NCBI RefSeq assembly: GCF_036588685.1
Contig: NC_086373.1
Span: forward strand, 96,100,001-96,164,000
Origin: Mytilus trossulus
Lineage: Eukaryota
Length of the DNA stretch: 64,000 bases
Direction of reading: 5' to 3'
The notes beneath the pieces were generated by a model. That model saw only the letters and a list, made by a program, of their open reading frames with translations. It did not search any database and was not told the origin of the DNA. The translations under genes and the position numbers were made by a program. Positions 6,201-24,200 of the stretch are shown piece after piece. Positions within the stretch are counted from its first letter, which is position 1. The number at the start of each line of letters is the position of its first letter.

Positions 6201-9200
6201 TTTTCCAACAAATCAAACAATATATCCAATAAAAACTTTTTTAAACCTAATAATACTCTCAGTAGCAAAGTTTTATTAATGAAAATAAGTCAAAAGCCTA
6301 AAACTTGTATATTCCAGTAAAATTAAAAAGATATTGTTTAATAAAAATCATAATGCTACATTTGTATACTAACCAACATGAATGTTGTTCATATCCATGC
6401 CTGTAATAGTAACTGTCACATGATCACCAGCAAAAGCACATGGATAAGAGACATCATTGATAGCTAAACCTGAAAGTTGCATAATCAACAGATTATAGAA
6501 TTATATACATTAATGAAATAATGACAAACAAAAACCAGCTCATTAATTTACTGATCTGGTATTTCAGGATATAATTTGATTGAAATGCAGTGAAAATAAA
6601 AAAAAAATAATAGGAGGTAACTCTGTAATTTCCCATCATTCTAACATCATTCTAACCATAGCTATCTAGAGATTTCTCACATTACCAGACACTAAGAAAA
6701 AAAAGGCTGTTTTGTCTGAGGTTTTTCTTTTAACCATGTTTTAAAAATCTTTCAAAGCCTGGTGCCTAAATACAAATGTAAATGCAACAGGGACAGTAAT
6801 GCACATGTGAAGCCAAAGGTACTTACAGGATACAAATTCTCCTGTAAGTCTGTTTTGGATATTTTATATACCAAGTAATGTGACAAATAGAAAATTGACA
6901 CTTAAGAGAGTTGTCTTATTGGCAATTATACCACATCATCTTATTTCTATATAATTCTTTGTCATAATATTTTCATCCCCATTTCTTGTAAAACATAAAA
7001 ATAACATCCAAGGAATGAGGTTGTTGTCATATATTGTACATGCTAACCTTTAACTGCCACAGAATCCCCACTAGGAAGAACCAGTAATCTGTCTCCAGGT
7101 TGTACTGATCCTGTCACTATCCTCCCAGTAACACTGAATCCACTTCCCATACCCTTAAATATATCTCCAACACACAATCGGAATGGTTTGTCAATAGATC
7201 GAGTCACAACTTTAAACTTATCTGAAAAATAGAGGACAAAAAGTATCTGAAATTAATCATATAGCTGTAGAAGAAATTTCTGATTTTCAAGTGTATCCGT
7301 AATAAAATGTCAAAAATCCAGTTACAATCCTGTACTAAAAGTCAAACCAAATATATTTTAATGACTATTATATGTTATACAAGAAACAGAAAATAACAAA
7401 CTGATTGCATAGAATGTATGTTGCATCCTAATATAAAAGACAAATCCTAACTGTTAATGGAAATACCATCATCTTGGGGAACTATCCAGTGTTTATCATC
7501 TTCTGGTAAATTCATTGAAACCAAAGCCTTGGTATATCTACTTACCAATTTGTTCCTCAAGCGTACTGCCTTTATACCATGACTCAAGTTTAGGTTCTGG
7601 AATTCTCCCTGTTAAATTAACACCACTTATTCCACTACAGGGAATAAATGATATATCATTTTCTTTATATCCAACTTGTTTTAAAAACTGTCCTAATTTT
7701 TTGGTAATATCATTATATCTAGTTTCTAACCAATCAATAGTGTCCATTTTATTCACTGCAACAATTAGTTGTGTTACGCCTGAAAAATATATAATCTTTT
7801 GTGAATACTCTAGTAAATATGAAACAAAGCAGATCTAATAAATACTGTGCTCTTTCCAGTTTTGACATTCATAAAATGAAGTTCATCCGATGCAGTGAAA
7901 AGGATATTTGCTAGATCCAAAATGACTCCAGCAATGCTTCCAACACATCATTGTAACTGTACATGTACTCATAAAATGGTTACAATAAATTATTATTTTA
8001 ACTCTTGTCACCTTGAAATTGAGTGCAGATGTCATCCAATATAAAGTAATGTTACAGGTCTTAATGGAATTGCATTAAAATTTGACAGTTTCTGACTTTA
8101 TACAGATTCTCTTTACTTAATTAAATTGTCCGTTTGGTATTTTTTCGCCACTCTGTTAATGTAAATCATTGCCTGTCCTCTGAGTTGTAATTTTACAAAC
8201 ATAGAATCTGTCAGTTCTCAATTCTGTCCAGCTTTCCCCAAGCTCAATTATCTAGTCACAGGTCCCAATTAAAACCCTGGTTTTTTTCTTACCTAAGGAT
8301 CTGGCTAAAATAGCATGTTCTCTAGTTTGGCCCCCAAGTTCAAATCCTGTTTCAAATTCTCCTTTAGTGGCATTAACTACCAGTATGGCTACATCTGCTT
8401 GTGCTGTTCCTGATTAAAAGATAAATATAACAATCTTTCATCTGATGTACATGAGATACAATACATGGAATGTTCTCAAATTTGAATTAATGGAGATGTT
8501 AGCTTTACAAATCAATGGCAAATCAAAATGACATTAAGTTTATAATGCCAGACCAATTAAAGATACTTCATTTATAACAATAATAATAAAAAAATATCAT
8601 TTAAGGTGGTACCCAACACTTTCACTAAAATTAATTTGGCTCGTTTAATTTTCATGAAATTTTGACAAAGTGTTAACTTTGACCCTTTAACCAAAATTTT
8701 GAACCAACCATTTTATCAGAAAAATTACACTGGTTATATAGCAGTTTGTCAAACACCAATTTAATAATTGAGAAGCTTAGTATTCCCTTTACAACACAAC
8801 GTAATTAAAACTTTTAACTGATTTTACAGAGTTATCTCCCTGTAGTGTTAGGTACCACCTTAAAAGAAACACTCCACTTTATCATCACATGTATTAACTT
8901 TGTTAGAGGCATGATTTGGAAATCTGAGTGAAATTAATCAGTTGTCAGATGACAAAAAAATAATCTAATCTCTGAGCTTCATACCCATTATCATATTTGG
9001 TATAAAATCATATAGAATTTTTATATATTTTTATAAACATGCTATAATATTACCTGTTATCATATTTGGTATAAAATCTTTGTGTCCAGGAGCATCTAGT
9101 AAGGTTATAACCTTCTTTGGAGTCTCAAATCTGGACTGAGCAATATCCATAGTAACACCCCGAGCACTGCCAAATATATGACAAATGAAAATAGCAAATA

Positions 9201-12200
9201 ATTTTAAACAAATCATAAAGAATAAATCTTAATCGTACATTTATAAAGCAACACACTTTATTCACTAAACTCGTTAGTTAATTAAAGCTGTTTATATGTG
9301 AATAATGTACTGAAATAGCAAACTTGAATATAATTTTAGGTAACATCCAAGAAACTTTTTACTCTGGGGAGTTAACATATTAAGTGCTATTGATTGTTGC
9401 TTGAATAACATACAGTGGTAATCTTTTGTGAACTGTATGTAGAGGTTTACATGAGTTTATCCTTAGAAATATGTGTGTGAGCAAGGTTTGTCTATAATTT
9501 TACCAGATACTTTTTTATTGGTTAATCAGCAATACAGCAGTCATAGTTTTGAAAACAACCACCAGGACAAAATAAAACTTTTAAACCTTATATTAACACT
9601 TACCGTTCCTCCTCAGTTTCATCAAGAACCCAGGCGAAGGCAAATGATCCTTTGCCTAACTTCTTAGATTCCTGTTCATATTTATGCATGATTCGTTGGT
9701 TTATCTCCCCTAGCTGGTACAACAGATGACCCATTAGAGTACTCTTTCCAGCATCTACATGTCCTATATAACAACAAAGTGATTTAAAAACTATAATAAA
9801 ATTTATACATTATTCACTTTTTACATTATAGCATAAGCTTTCTTCAGAAAAAGTTCATAAGAAGAAAATACTTAACAGTAAAGCTGTATGTCTGTCAATT
9901 TCAAGATGGTAGAAAGCTAGGACACTTATAACAATAATTTCCTGCAGAATATATTTACCTATAACAACCATATTTAATTGATCCTTTTCTGCAAGTCTTT
10001 TGTCATATTCTTCCTTCATTTTTGCTGGATCTAATAACAACTTGGCTCTACAAGAAATTTTAATATTATTTTTTTCTTCAAAATGTAAATATTTTTCTCT
10101 TCAAATCATTAATGATAATAATTTCAAAATTTCTTTTATTATTTGATTACACTGATGTGGCATTTAGTGTTGATGTCTTGTGAATAGTTTTTCAATTCTA
10201 TATCTGAATGACTTTTAAGTTATGGGATGAAAATTACTTATCTAGGAACATGCCTTGTTGACCATAATCACAAATTGTTGAACTGTTTAGATGTTTGTGT
10301 GTACCTCAAACTTAGTCCTATGTACTTGGTTTGATTCAAAGATTTACATCTGGTATGGAGATATGCGTCAATGATTTCAGTAAAACGTTTTGAAGATGAT
10401 CAATGCTGAGTGATGAAAATAGCTCATATGTTGTTTTGTTTTTTTACATTAACAAGGCTGTTGATGATTTTTTAAATTGTTTCACATTTGCCATGTCACA
10501 GCTTTGTATAGCTTACCATACAGTATAGATTTTGCTCATTGTTGAATACTGAACAATGACCTATAAATGTTTACATCCAGGTCCTTTGGTCAGGTAGACA
10601 TTTTATTTTCATACCACATGTCTATATTTGTACACATCTGTTATATCTGACATAATTTGAACTTACTTAGAAGCACTCCTCGGAATAGCTCCAAGAGATG
10701 GGTCTTTTTTAGGGGTCAAGAAACTGTCAGTTTTAGACTCCACTTTTAGAGTATCCCCTTTAGAATCAGATTTCACTGTCAGTACACCACTATCTGTTTT
10801 TAAATCGTTTTTTCCTGTCCGTAAATTACTGTCTTCAGAATTACTAGCTGCTATCCTTCCTTTATCACTGTCAATATTTAGACTAGTTTTCACATTATTA
10901 GATAATGTTTGAGACTTTTGCAAAGATTCACTTTTATCTGAATTTAATTGACTGTTTGTGGCTTGATCACTACTGTTTAGTGTCTTTTCAGGACTTTTAG
11001 AAGATTGTCTCCCCTTCGGTGGTACTTTCAATATCACTGTTGGTGGGGCTGTGGCAAATGCTACAATGTCAGCAAATAAAACATTAATTCTGAAAGTAAA
11101 ATGTTAATGCAAGCTAAACCTAAGTAGAAACAGTTCATGAAAATATAATGAAGTCTAGTCATTTTTTACTATTTTTTAATGTTACTTGCAAAATATGGGA
11201 AAATGAAAGAAATATGATTTCAAAGTTACCTCTGGATACTGCGTTTTGATCATAAAGAAGCTTCTGTAAAATTTTCATAAAATTCTATGATGTTTGACAA
11301 ACTTATTGATGTGTAAAAAAAACTTTTAACTACAGTCTGAACCATCTTCGCTAGCCAAGGGTTACAATCCCCTCCCCTCCTCTCCACCCTAGGCAGATTG
11401 AGATGGAATTTCAGAGACACAAGGTAATGATTCTTATTGTTTGCAGTCATAACTGGATGCATCCAATCTAAAATCACCTATAACATGATCAAGTGTAAAT
11501 GTAAGTAAACAATTGCCACATGCTGATTGTGCAACAAGTCTGTACAGCAGAACACACACAGACAATATTAAGGTAGATCACAGGTATATATTTTTTGAGA
11601 CAGAATTTTTTGCCGAAAATTTGCCGAAATGAAGATTTTACTATGCTCTTTTCAAAAATTTAATGAAAAGTATGGTTCACCGTGCTATTTTTCAAGCAGT
11701 GAGTCGTTGAAAATTGCCAAAATTTGGTTAGTTTGTTCATGAAAAAACACATTAGTGTGCATAAAAAAAATTCTATGAGATAGAATTTTGAAATAAATTG
11801 TGAGAAGAAAGATTTCATAATATGTCTTAAGAAAATAAAAAGAAAGCATGGTGTCACCGAATTTGTTTTCCTGCTACAAGTAAAAATAAAAAAAATCCCT
11901 ATAAGTCCAGTGTAAATTTTGTACTAAAAGAGTTATCTCCCCTTAAATGGCTCATTTGAAAAAAATGATTTTCACACCAAAAAAAATGATATTTGTTAAA
12001 ATATTTTGTATAATACGATGAATTAACAAGTTATTTTCAAATAGAAAAAAACAGTCTTACTATTGAATTGCAAATATGTCTCTAAATTTGCTGATTTAGG
12101 CAAATAACTAGACCTATTTTGTACTGTGATTGTATAATCCAAGATGGCGATATACCATCAATCTACCTTAAGTGACAATTTAAATGTTTATTTAACTATT

Positions 12201-18200: not shown

Positions 18201-21200
18201 GCCCCACTCGCACGATCATTTTCTATGTTCAGTGGACCTTGAAATTGGGGTCAGAACTTTAATTTGACATTAAAATTAAAAAAGATCATATCATAAGGAA
18301 CATATATACTAAGTTTCAGGTTGATTGGACTTCAACTTCATCAAAAACTACCTCGACCAAAAACTTTAACCTGAAACTTGACAGACAAACGAACAGACAG
18401 ATGAACAGACGCACAGTCCAGAAAACATAATGCCCCTCTACTATTGTAGGTGGGGCATAAAAAATAAATCTTTTTCTTAAAATCAGTTTAAGCAAATTCC
18501 AAATCTCATAATATCAGTATGGCACACACAGAATGATTTTGTTATCAGCTTCTTTATTTATAGTACATGTGCCAGGTTCTTCCCTTTAAAACACATTCCA
18601 TTTCATTCTGTCTACCTCTACCATTCTATCTGTCTTGTCTCTATTTTCTCTGCTTCAACACAGGATATTCATTGTTTATCAACAGTTTTAGTACTTGGTG
18701 TTCTTTCTGGTAAAGCTGCCGTTTTAGTATTCTATCTACCTCTTTCTCATAATCATACAATAGCTGTTGTCTAATAATCATGTCTGCTTAAAAATGGATT
18801 TTGGATGTTCATTTTTTCTCACCAGTTCTAGTAAATGCTGCTTTCTGTTTAGATCTGACAATATCATCAGGTGACGGAGTAGTAAAATCAAATGGAATAA
18901 TCTCATTCATAATGTTACATGACCTTTTAATATTCTTCATTTGATGAGTATAAGAAAATTGACCGTATTTCCTTTTCTTATTTATCTTATAATTACAATC
19001 ATAAAGACATAAAACCTGTCCAAGAAATGAGGCCTGAAATTTCACAAAGTCACATTGAACAGTATTAATAGTCTCTTCAGAAAAGGTTGGAAGTAGCACT
19101 TCATGGTCATGACCTTCAACTGATTCTTGTGCAATAAATTGTTTCTTTTCTTTTTTAACAGTTTGAGAAACTTTTGGAACAGACTTGACAATTTTCTTCC
19201 CAGCCAAATCAGTCAGTGAAATATTGGACTCCTTTTTCAAATTAGATATCTTTAAACCATCTAAATTGTATACTAATTTATCTCCTTGACTAGGTTTAAC
19301 TTCATTAGATGATGTTTTTGACAAAGCTGCCAGTGATGTCATACTTTTCCCTGAGTTCTGACTATCGGTAGATTGTGTAGAGGAATTAACATGTGTTCCT
19401 GGTTGATCTGAAGACTGAGTTAAGCGTTTGCTAGGAAGTTGTTTTGATGGTAAAGCTAAATCTGACAATGATAATTGTTTAGCTGTATTATGTTTAACAT
19501 TGGCTAATTCTGCCAAAGATGGTTGTGTTGACGTTCTTGTAGACTGAGAACTAGCCAGTTCTGCCAAAGATGGTTGTTTTGAAACTCCTACAGACCTAGA
19601 ATTAGTCAGTTCTGCTAAAGAAGGTTGCCTTACTTGGATAGAAGAATCTTTAGCTATTTCTGCTAAGGAAAATTGCTTCCCTGTACCAGAAGGAAGTATT
19701 TTGGTCAAATCAGTTAACTTGCTTTTCAAGGTATCATGACCAATTTCAACACCAGATAATTTACTCTCCAATTCAGTCACCTGGTATTGGTTATCAGTTG
19801 TTTTATCTTTGTTCAAATTTGACACCCCTTTCTGACTGGCCAATGCAGACAAAGATGGCTGTTTGGAGGATGGTGTATTCTGACTGGTCAACTTAGACAC
19901 TGATGGCTGCTGTTTGGATGATGCATTCTGATTGGTCAGCTCTGATAATGAAAGCTTCTTTGATAAATTTAGTCCAGATAAATCAGATAATGATGGTTGC
20001 TTAGCAGATGTTCTCTGGTTGGCCAATTGAGATAAAGATGGTTGCTTTGAAGACAAGTTTTGAGTAGCCAGTTGAGATAAAGGTGTATTTTGCTTTGCAA
20101 AATGTGATAAGGACGACTGCTGACTACATGATGAGTTCTGTTTAGCTAACTCTGATAAAGATGGCTGCCCTTTGCACTTTACATTCTGACCTGTTAATTC
20201 TGATAATGGTATCTGCTTTCTAGAAGAAACATTTTGTTTAGCCAATTCAGACAATGACTTATCTTTTGTAGAAACTGCTGATTGGTTTGCAACATTTATC
20301 AGAGCAGGCTGTTTGGAAGATAATGAATTCTGATTGGCTAGCTCTATAACTGATGGTTCATCAGGTGTACATGACAAATAATCAGAAGATCCAGTGGATG
20401 GATACTTTTCTCTTTTTCTAATGCCTGATTCTTGACCATCAGGTGTTGTGGAAAGACATTCTGATGAACCGGCGGAGGAATAATTAATAATTTTAGCTTT
20501 TAATGCAGTATTTGATATATTTTCTAATGAACTCTCAGAAGACCAGCTACCGCCATATTTCAGTATCCCTAAGGACTGTTTTAAATTATGAGAGAAATTA
20601 ATTTTAGGGGAATTAGTATCAAGGGATTGTAAAAAGTCATCAAAATCATCATCATAATCTCCTTACCTTACAGATGCCAATTTTAATCCAATCACAATTG
20701 TTGTTATTAATATTTGTAATTGACCAATCAGATGTAGAGTTGTTTCAATGAATCACCATGCAGGAACAGGAAGAAATGAAAAAGAAAGAAAAGGCATGAT
20801 GTTAGGCAAGATATATAGTAGCTAAATTCTGCATTACATAAAATAAACTTTCTGTTCTATAACTTGTTACAGCTGTTCTATGTATGATTTTAATCACTAT
20901 TTTCTCAAACTTTCCTTCGATCTTTCTGTTTAATAATTTTCAGAATCGCACAACTTTACAGTTATGGTTTATACTCAGAAGTGTAGAAATAGTGTATAAA
21001 GTCATAAACCAACATAATTGACATTGCTTATTAAAATACAAATATAGCTATTGGTCTTTCAAACTTAAGGATTTTTCTCAGCTGCATCTCAGGGCTATTG
21101 CTCATTGATGATATTGCAACTTAAAAACTCCCTCTGGTTTAATCATCTATGATGATTGATATTTTACATCAATATTTGGCAAGTCATAAAATTATATTAT

Positions 21201-24200
21201 TCCTTTATCACTTAAAAAGTATATTTAAATTAAACTGTAGACTCAATATCAAAAAAAATTATAAACAACAATGTTTTCTTAAAAATGTTTTCTTTCAATT
21301 AGACCAAAATAACATCAATGTTTTATAAACATTCAAATGTGGAAGCTTTATTTACATAGTAAGTTCCAATTGTGTTGGAAAATTTGATGGTTTATTGGTT
21401 GATATCCACCTAGTGGCAATTATCTATATAGAATAAATAAATAGATGCAATGAATACCTTTGTCATGCTATTACAGCAGAATGCATCAGGTGTGTAGGAA
21501 AAGGTAATATCTTTAGTTAGCTTGCTTGCTAGCTGAATCATGAAGTCATTATAAGGTTAGGTAAACTACCTTCTTTTAAGAGTTAGCTAGTCCGTAGATT
21601 ACCAAGGCTTAAATTAAAATATCGTTTGTTTGCCCTTTACCGACCGACCCTTTAAATTCGTTCCGCCTGAAAATCTTTTATTTGCATTTTCCAGCAAGAT
21701 TTTATTTTATTTTATTTTTTCGTTCCTATCAAAAATCTTATATTTGAATTTGCCGCTCAAACCTTTTTACTGGAATCCTCGGGTTTTACATTTGTCGTAT
21801 AACGTCTAGTCCGTTTGGTATCACGTGAGCGTTTGACATGAACACTTGCATTTAGAGTTTCAAAGCATTTGTTTGAAATCGATATTGAACAGTACGTTAC
21901 TCTGTATCTTTATACTTGATGAGAAGGGTTCATTTACAAAACTATCAACGTGTGTACAAACTATTTTGTAAACGGACGTTGTATTCTATGTAGGGATGGC
22001 CTTTTCAAGGACGTATAACTAGCATACGTCCTTGGCCTTTTTGTGATCCGTAGATCAGGATGATTATGTTAACGATGCCTTCGACCAGTATTGCTATATT
22101 CATTATATCTGACATGAACCAAAGGTGACAAACGCCTTTAAAGTGGAGAGTATTTGGCAGTAAAATCGCCTAAGTTTTCCATACAGATCATTTTATAAAT
22201 GCGATGTAAAATATGTGACAATTGAGTTTCAACTTTCAAGTCTCATTGCATTTTAATTAGCAACATAGGCACAAACGAAAATTTAAACACTCTAGGGACT
22301 TTTTCTACTAGTAATGTATGTCTGCCTGGGCATATTTTACCAGGACAATATTAAACCTTATAGAAAACCTTTAGGTAGAGGTAAGCAAACAATGTACGTA
22401 GTACAGAATATTAGTGCAAGTTAAAACTCTTCAAAGTTCAAGGCATATAAACATTGAAAATATGCGACACAGCTCTATATTTTGATATTTGAAAACAAAA
22501 TAGTAGTGCATATGAATTAACTTCACATTCTACATGACATTTTTTTTTCAAAACTTCCTTGGACTATGATACAACTTGGAACAGTATATCTAACAATATG
22601 TATGTTCCTGGATACAAATAGTCCCACAAACTTTTTAGCAAAAGCAAAACAGACAAAATGACATTATGAAGATTTTTTATCTATAAAATAAAATATTATA
22701 CCTACCTGCCTACCAATGACAAAAAATATACCGACCCAAGTTATTTTTTTGGGGAAAAAATAAAATATTTTACCTTCCTACCTACCCTGTTTCAAAACAT
22801 AGGGTCGGAAAAGGGCAAACAAACAATATTTTAATTTAGGCCCAATACATGTATATCTGTAGAACTAGACTACTCAATAAGGAGAGTAGTAAACCTAACC
22901 TAATAATGACTTTACAGTTCAGCTAACAAGCAAGCTAACCAAAGATTATTCTTCGACCTATGCACTCATTGCATTCTGGTGTAAAGTCTTAAGCTGTATT
23001 ACCACAGTAATATTTGATCATAACTTTGGAGTATATTAGATGCATACCTTGTGATCTGTTCCTTCGTGAATCTCGAGGCTGTCTCTGTGGCTTTGGTGCA
23101 TCTAAAAAGGAAAACCATCTTGTTCAATCTTATTTGGGTGATTACAGATTGTACAATTGTATTTATTATAAGCTTGGCTGTTAGGTTTGGAATTTCAGTC
23201 AGTGCAGATTGAACATTGTATTTATTCAAGCTCAGCTCACTAGGTCTCGGAATTCATTTCGAACAGATTGAACATTGTATTTATCTATGTTCATTAGGTC
23301 TAAGAATTCATTCAGTGCAGATTGTAAATTGTATTTATCTAAGCTTGGCTGTTAGATTACATTGTACATGTTGTATTGATTTAAGTTAGGCTAATCGGTC
23401 TTGGAATTAATTCAGTGCATATATTCTATGTTGCATTTATTTAAGCTTGGCTGATATTTAATCTGGCTTATATGATTTCTAAATCCTTATAATGTCGGTT
23501 TAATGTTGATGTTATAACACTTGCATATGATGTTATACAAAAAATTAGTGGTGTCAGACTTTAATAAAATATTTTAGTTATTATCAGAGTAGATTTTATT
23601 ACACTTGTCTGTTTGATTCAGTTATTATTAGTGTAGATTTTATTTTGCAATTATTTAAGCTTGACTGATATTTAATCTGGCTTATTTGATTTCTAAACCC
23701 TTTTAATGTCGGTTTAATGTTGATGTTTTTACACTTGCTTGAATGATTTAGTAATTTTATCAGAGTAGATTTTATGTTGCAGTTATTCAATTTGCATGTT
23801 TGATTCAGTTATTATTAGTGTAGATTTTATGTTGCAGTTATTAAACTTGTCTGTTTGATTCAGTTATTATTAGTGTAGATTTTATGTTGCAGTTATTAAA
23901 CTTGCCTGTTTGATTTAGTAATTATCAGTGTAGATTTTATGTTGCAGTTATTCAACTTGCCTGTTTGATTCAGTTATTATTAGTGTAGATTTTATGTTGC
24001 AGTTATTAAACTTGCCTGTTTTATTAAGTAATTATCAGAGTAGATTTTATTAAACTTGCCTGTTCCTGTTTGGTTAAGTAATTCGTTCAGCGTAGATTGT
24101 ATGTTGTAGTTATGTTTGACAATGGTTTGAGCCATTATATGTTCAGGACAGGATTCTCCCAAGACATTTCTAACTTCATCCAGGCAAGAATTCAACTTGG

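Follow-up and report, generated by a model that had tools for sequence, protein, structure and literature searches.

A conserved acceptor–donor–acceptor element at the Ski7-type last exon of the Mytilus HBS1/SKI7 gene and its possible role as a splicing toggle

The split between Hbs1 and Ski7 by alternative splicing is already known across eukaryotes, and SKI7-like proteins of molluscs have been reported as well (PMC6143672, PMC5389692, PMC7924785, PMC8075583; here and below, papers given by archive number are cited from excerpts of their text). The closest described system is the HBS1L/SKI7 last exon (human exon 5a, or HBS1LV3; zebrafish ski7 exon 5), where, as in the locus studied here, one gene yields Hbs1 and a GTPase-less Ski7 via an alternative last exon with a Patch 4-like motif. 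The amount of Ski7 is under developmental control (>10-fold in zebrafish eggs; PMC7924785), and no cis-element for the Hbs1/Ski7 choice in animals is given in the excerpted literature. The excerpts of the four papers on HBS1L/SKI7 named above describe no acceptor design, tandem GTAAG, out-of-frame sister acceptor or re-splicing. In fungi (Lachancea, Aspergillus, Saitoella; PMC3597508), the choice of the 3′ splice site also sets Ski7 versus Hbs1, but there each site has its own branch point, the sites lie far apart and in frame, and an embedded donor is not described in the excerpts.

Recursive splice sites and RS-exons (Drosophila ratchet points, Ubx m1/m2; human RS-exons repressed by the EJC) likewise combine an adjacent acceptor and donor, rebuild a 5′ splice site at the junction, are highly conserved, and leave an out-of-frame product when retained. 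There the competing outcome is a downstream donor, whereas in the mussel gene it is a second acceptor 5 nt on, which deletes the donor and opens the last exon; moreover, the mussel acceptors are weak AAGs with a distant tract, and the intron can be as short as 159 nt (in locus L007, see below). Distant-branch-point exons (Gooding et al., 2006; PTB exon 11) have an AG-free zone of at least 150 nt, as does the mussel exon, with an upstream branch consensus and tract, and are alternatively used, but here the zone ends in an acceptor–donor–acceptor tandem. Finally, in the nuclear RNA degradation code, known from human cells, a 5′ splice site acts jointly with a poly(A) junction through PAXT; polyadenylated RNA spliced to the first acceptor of the mussel exon would carry both signals, known here as sequence features, but ~2 kb apart and in a conserved regulated isoform.

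HBS1L is absent from the supplementary tables of PMC6224609 (five files) and PMC1431707 (two files), and supplementary file 11 of PMC6110456 contains a single site from human HBS1L, at chr6:135296173 within an intron of 9,340 nt. In the literature on recursive splicing and HBS1/SKI7 we found no description of the element reported below; its novelty is provisional, the literature on metazoan Ski7 splicing being covered in part. The human site chr6:135296173 presumably lies near the 3′ end of HBS1L, and not at exon 5a. The mussel splice element is real, conserved and apparently undescribed, and it is situated at a known isoform switch.

The window analyzed here is a 64,000-nt stretch of the Mytilus trossulus genome, and all positions refer to it. 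Its minus strand carries the Mytilus HBS1/SKI7 gene, alternatively spliced in the known arrangement. The encoded protein is identical to M. trossulus XP_063408361.1 over the searched region (residues 520–617 of P0001). The shared exons encode the HBS1_N domain (PF08938, E 5.6e-15 on P0009), the Ski7-type last exon has a C-terminal match to human HBS1L isoform 2 in an exosome–ribosome structure (PDB 9G8M, chain E; E 2.9e-7), and the best PDB match of the downstream GTPase exons is Hbs1l (E 1.6e-23). Both isoforms are present in run X1, where exon 5 is joined to 11060 (Hbs1) and to 20661 (Ski7); the whole intron from exon 5 to Hbs1 exon 6 is 11,987 nt long. The relevant parts of the gene are as follows.

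23048–23101, minus strand: shared exon 5, with phase-1 donor AAG/GTATGC, 6/9 to the donor consensus
18809–20661, minus strand: coding part of the Ski7-type alternative last exon, 617 codons, the C-terminus matching 9G8M
18857–18895, minus strand: Patch 4-like motif, 13 residues (consensus from PMC6143672)
18553–18558, minus strand: candidate poly(A) signal, the first AATAAA after the Ski7 stop, from sequence only
10667–11060, minus strand: Hbs1 exon 6, the alternative acceptor for exon 5; a loose end at 23048 in X1 equals its first 16 letters, and a joint 10047–10667 is seen

In addition, the Ski7 exon encodes many QPSLxxLA repeats (around 19400–20300, minus strand), and similar SLxxLA repeats are found in other invertebrate Ski7 exons.

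At the acceptor of the Ski7-type exon, three AGs (AG1, AG2, AG3) follow one another closely, preceded by a long region free of AG. L007 and L021 are the distant invertebrate loci introduced below.

20801–20806, minus strand: predicted distant branch point CCTAAC, branch A at 20802, ~135 nt above AG1; unchanged in contigs X14 and X20 of a close relative
20768–20792, minus strand: polypyrimidine tract, 24 of 25 letters being pyrimidines; ends 101 nt above AG1
20669–20821, minus strand: AG-free zone, 153 nt; no AG is created by the substitutions of the close relative
20676–20680, minus strand: TTGGC element, 4 nt above the tandem GTAAG; invariant in the window, L007 and L021
20662–20671, minus strand: tandem GTAAG/GTAAG, with AG1 at 20668–67, the embedded donor at 20666–61, and AG2 at 20663–62
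20659–20660, minus strand: AG3 (GAG), in frame; no use seen and not conserved
20581–20583, minus strand: premature stop after AG1 splicing, reached after 28 codons

This anatomy had largely been read from the sequence in a preliminary description of the locus, which placed CCTAAC and a strong tract ~140 nt upstream of the exon (found at 20806–20801 and 20792–20768, respectively) within an AG-free zone of ~150 nt (153 nt by measurement, from 20821 to 20669), and whose three predicted junction coordinates, 20666, 20661 and 20658, are all correct. Its statement that only the first of the clustered AGs is out of frame with an early stop is borne out by translation: from the phase-1 donor at 23048, AG1 leads to a stop after 28 codons, and AG2 and AG3 open frames of 617 and 616 codons, respectively. 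As also described there, a good donor consensus stands immediately behind the first AG: AG1 joining rebuilds AAG/GTAAGG, 7/9 to the consensus, compared with 6/9 for the native exon 5 donor. AG1 and AG2 are two equally weak AAG acceptors, 5 nt apart, with a donor sequence between them. Proximal pyrimidines make up 9–11 of 17 positions in the three loci carrying the element, and AAG is present in 3/3, so that none has a strong YAG. An upstream in-frame extension or a non-AG acceptor is ruled out by the TAA at 20665–63.

Among the gaps between the window's 6,392 AGs on both strands, only one is longer than this 153-nt stretch; taken alone, however, it is only moderately unusual, as a first-order simulation expects 0.5 such gaps per strand. 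At the 11 other measured acceptors of the gene, four of them with coordinates off by one base, AG-free zones span ~13–67 nt, and, out of 184 CTRAC sites in the window, the one at the Ski7 acceptor is the only one followed by a tract with at least 21/25 pyrimidines. That the zone persists in the close relative carries no significance (P 0.33 that 8 substitutions make no new AG), and its divergence there is borderline lower (7/155 vs. 25/227, P 0.025; worst case 0.10, with 32 of the 34 differences visible). No conserved RNA fold was found (z-scores 0.77, 0.90, -0.11 and 0.02), and Rfam gave a single chance-level match (E 0.42). TGCATG, an RBFOX-type motif, lies directly past the pyrimidine tract (20762–20757, minus strand); no variant is listed for it in the close relative, and it is absent from L007 and L021.

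Transcript evidence is available from seven of the 24 listed runs; the contig runs are not recorded as RNA, yet hold spliced joints or junctions, except X20, which has none. Junctions into the Ski7 exon are carried by four runs (X1, X2, X3 and X14) at the contig level, at which rare forms may drop out; the raw-read runs X24 and X21 have no depth over 20646–21229. In X2 and X3 the exon 5 letters continue beyond 20664, as expected of AG2, and in X1 the alignment ends at 20664 and is followed by another 11 letters, which agrees with AG2. The protein sequence SQ-GDYDDD, which corresponds to AG2, is found in 5/5 RefSeq proteins from four Mytilus species; a sixth protein, the GenBank-predicted model P0004, enters the exon further down.

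The junction from 23048 to 20666, proposed for AG1 in the preliminary description, does exist, in one of the four junction-bearing runs. X14, from a close relative and another study, has a loose end at 20669 with 24 exon 5 letters, and a second X14 contig begins exactly at 20669, the meeting point of the intron contig and the junction contig, being identical to the window over 20580–20669. The depth of the AG1 junction contig is ~19 (arithmetic on bins), against 7.7 for the unspliced intron and ~50 for the second contig. Thus, ~23 of the ~50 are unaccounted for, and an AG2 path may have been dropped by the assembly; likewise, AG1 paths may have been dropped in X1–X3, the three runs closest to the window, whose contigs lack the AG1 junction.

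The later AGs had been suggested to form an in-frame NAGNAG that commits the transcript to Ski7. This holds for AG2, which is joined in frame in X1, X2 and X3; AG3 is used in 0/4 junction contigs and missing in L007, and, as no contig uses it, the NAGNAG looks incidental. One apparent AG3 junction in X3 (alignment end 20660) was rejected, the same 577-nt contig extending to 20664 and thus to AG2. A 255-nt loose end at 20639 in X3 disappears on re-alignment and is probably a chance short match.

To examine conservation, metagenome contigs were scanned with the Patch 4-like motif, which yielded 26 loci; the related-locus search of metagenome contigs gave no match, viral contigs none, and genome contigs one, in a bacterial MAG (L027). 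Two loci are informative: L007 is a whole compact HBS1/SKI7 gene, and L021 comprises the Ski7 exon together with GTPase exons downstream of it. L007 is distant, its shared N-terminus being only 49% identical to that of Mytilus, compared with 62% for oyster and 56% for abalone. The conservation check suggested in the preliminary description turned out positive, with the core GTAAGGTAAG and, in addition, an upstream TTGGC that had gone unnoticed: TTGGC-N4-GTAAGGTAAG is identical at the Ski7 acceptors of the window, L007 and L021, each time past a displaced pyrimidine tract. It occurs three times in 377,528 nt (window and 26 loci, both strands), each time at a Ski7 acceptor; calculated post hoc, the eight extra GTAAG letters have a rough per-locus chance of 2e-5, and TTGGC one of 9e-4.

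The reading frames are conserved as well. AG1 is out of frame in 3/3 loci (28 codons in the window, 78 in L007, 56 in L021), and AG2 is in frame in 3/3 (617, 395 and 556 codons, respectively); the phase-1 junction is shown in L007 and assumed in L021, where the upstream exon is off the contig. AG3 is present in L021 and missing in L007. The length of the AG-free zone differs between the window (153 nt), L021 (124 nt) and L007 (65 nt), and thus the zone is not the conserved core. L007 accommodates everything from exon 5 to exon 6 in ~1.5 kb; its intron to AG1 measures 159 nt, and its native donor scores 8/9, above the 7/9 of the rebuilt donor. The Hbs1 exon acceptor of L007 (7126–7183) lies only ~57 nt past the Ski7 stop, and a candidate poly(A) signal, AATACA at 7163, adjoins its pyrimidine tract; therefore 3′ end formation and splicing may compete directly there.

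Downstream Hbs1 GTPase exons were found in two of the 26 loci, precisely those with the motif. One related group of 21 loci (L001, L002, L004, L006, L008–L020, L022–L024, L026; 20 assigned by pattern, L001 by eye) has no motif and ordinary pyrimidine–YAG acceptors; L005 and L025, which appear to end before the exon start, and L003 were left out. Members of the group begin the Ski7-type ORF with an ATG of their own (MIKSTFSR), 39–49 nt into the exon and in varying frames; the phase-1 frame was seen in 0/16 loci where the script picked the evident acceptor (in four more it picked a wrong AG), and no Hbs1 exon was found in the 21 contigs, most of which are short. Judging from these sequences, the group may represent a Ski7 lacking the N-terminus of HBS1, possibly encoded by a gene of its own.

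With slightly less than even confidence, we propose that the doubled acceptor is a toggle, such that AG1 products would be re-spliced to the Hbs1 exon, while AG2 removes the donor and commits the transcript to Ski7. When the branch point is distant, scanning to the first AG selects the acceptor, and AGs lying close together compete. Under this scanning model, U2 would use the distant CCTAAC for branching, and scanning by the spliceosome would then pass through the AG-free zone to two equally weak AAGs. Joining of exon 5 to AG2 produces an in-frame 772-aa Ski7 isoform from which the embedded donor is deleted. Joining to AG1, the junction found in one run of a relative, produces a frameshifted exon5-AAG/GTAAGG with the donor kept; this rebuilt donor would then be spliced to exon 6, giving an Hbs1 mRNA identical to the direct product, and AG1 products polyadenylated before re-splicing would be degraded. 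Since the choice between AG1 and AG2 decides whether the donor is kept or lost, it would thus help to set the Hbs1:Ski7 ratio. Re-splicing to exon 6 is indistinguishable from direct splicing, as the same mRNA results.

The toggle is supported by detection of both AG1 and AG2 junctions and by conservation of a GT donor after an out-of-frame AG, which, by the definition of tandem acceptor–donor sites, is a requirement for re-splicing (PMC8605326). Several observations speak against it. An A is found at position -3 of AG1 in 3/3 loci, whereas human recursive sites have a pyrimidine there in 86.7% of cases (PMC13622621). RS-exons have a downstream donor within ~100 nt (PMC6224609), and the Ski7 acceptor has none: donors scoring at least 7/9 first occur at 471, 1134 and 1635 nt in the three exons, and, as no such donor lies within 470 nt in any of them, there is no RS-exon of the usual kind. 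Neither the removal of a long intron nor a very distant branch point is constant, given the 159-nt intron and the 65-nt AG-free zone of L007. The conserved first GTA and TTGGC are left unexplained by re-splicing, AG1 is used in one of four junction-bearing runs, 21 other loci have ordinary acceptors, and ~19 of ~50 in depth is much for a short-lived intermediate. Of the ratchet point that the preliminary description had suggested for the first AG, the AG1 junction and the rebuilt donor stand, but, with its weak AAG acceptors, no nearby downstream donor and the 159-nt intron of L007, the site is not a classic ratchet point.

The AG1 contig in X14 is fairly deep, which speaks for a self-destructing isoform; we consider this unlikely, though the strongest of the alternatives. 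Here, AG1 splicing followed by polyadenylation would leave an early stop and an unused donor in the last exon, and the RNA would be destroyed by the nuclear exosome/PAXT or by long-3′UTR NMD; with little re-splicing, this would throttle Ski7, itself an exosome cofactor, possibly as feedback. AG1 is indeed out of frame in all three loci, AG2 removes the donor exactly, and in human cells a 5′ splice site combined with a poly(A) junction sends RNA to decay by PAXT/exosome (bioRxiv 2024.07.23.604837), which would explain why the donor is conserved. However, the donor lies ~2.1 kb from the first AATAAA, compared with 68 nt in the pulldown construct of that study, whose excerpts leave distance dependence open; a good acceptor, that of exon 6, lies downstream; and one might expect RNA targeted for decay to be rare.

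The A at -3 and the tandem repeat, not needed by re-splicing, are better explained than by the toggle if the element acts before splicing, which on the whole seems to us slightly less likely still than decay. U1 recruited to the pre-mRNA by AAG/GTAAGR would either serve, together with the distant branch point, to define an AG-less pseudo-exon, or mask AG2 while suppressing the poly(A) site of Ski7; joining to AG1 would be a by-product. The 7/9 site is present in unspliced RNA of all three loci, the first GTAAG forms a second register (5–6/9), the tract-to-site distances of 25–101 nt correspond to the size of small exons, and the last exon, of 1.2–1.9 kb, has no donor of its own. Cross-exon definition has a lower limit of ~50 nt, and the L007 spacing of 25 nt is short for it. 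Such a U1 role is also compatible with re-splicing, as AG1 joining rebuilds the same site; the toggle, decay and U1 readings are not mutually exclusive.

It is very improbable that a cryptic upstream exon, with its acceptor near 20829 or 20822, uses AG/GTAAG as its donor for splicing to exon 6, since, although AGGT sites acting as both donor and acceptor are common (PMC10809524) and the AG at 20823–22 is kept in the relative, there is no joint or loose end at 20667 among the matches listed, the cryptic exon would by eye hold stops, and the upstream distance varies (153, 124, 65 nt). An upstream AG can determine the use of a downstream one. We give equally little credence to a functionless donor in an ordinary distant-branch-point acceptor, where AG1 would merely steer the second step to AG2 and AG1 junctions would be noise: AG2 dominates and a donor is rebuilt by chance in 3.6% of human exons (PMC6224609), but 15 invariant letters across three distant lineages would stay unexplained.

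Returning to the toggle, a broader version combining several of these elements is possible, but, taken as one joint statement, we regard it as doubtful. An ancient acceptor–donor–acceptor toggle would balance ribosome rescue (Hbs1) against exosome recruitment (Ski7) across invertebrates through a 5-nt shift of the second-step AG: with the donor kept, the last exon would be re-spliced away or destroyed by the very exosome it serves, and with the donor lost, the transcript would be committed; U1 would also provide the distant branch point with an AG-less pseudo-exon, and a regulator would bind UUGGC. If re-splicing is true, recursive splicing would serve to switch between isoforms at an alternative last exon, in introns down to 159 nt, and not to cut long introns. 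The finding itself supplies a 15-letter conserved element with precise, mutable positions.

Other introns of the gene show further splice-site features. The intron at 24059–23102 (minus strand) is of the GC–AG type (joint CT..GC), and just below its donor a 55-nt tandem repeat (6.1 copies, 23713–24050) has units that repeat the donor ACAG/GCAAGT. Upstream, RefSeq isoforms P0002 (QGKL) and P0009 (QAKL) differ by a 5-nt shift of both the donor (AAG GTAAG GT, 24531–24526, minus strand) and the acceptor (TAG CCAAG, 24200–24196, minus strand) of one intron, and the observed joint supports the QAKL form.
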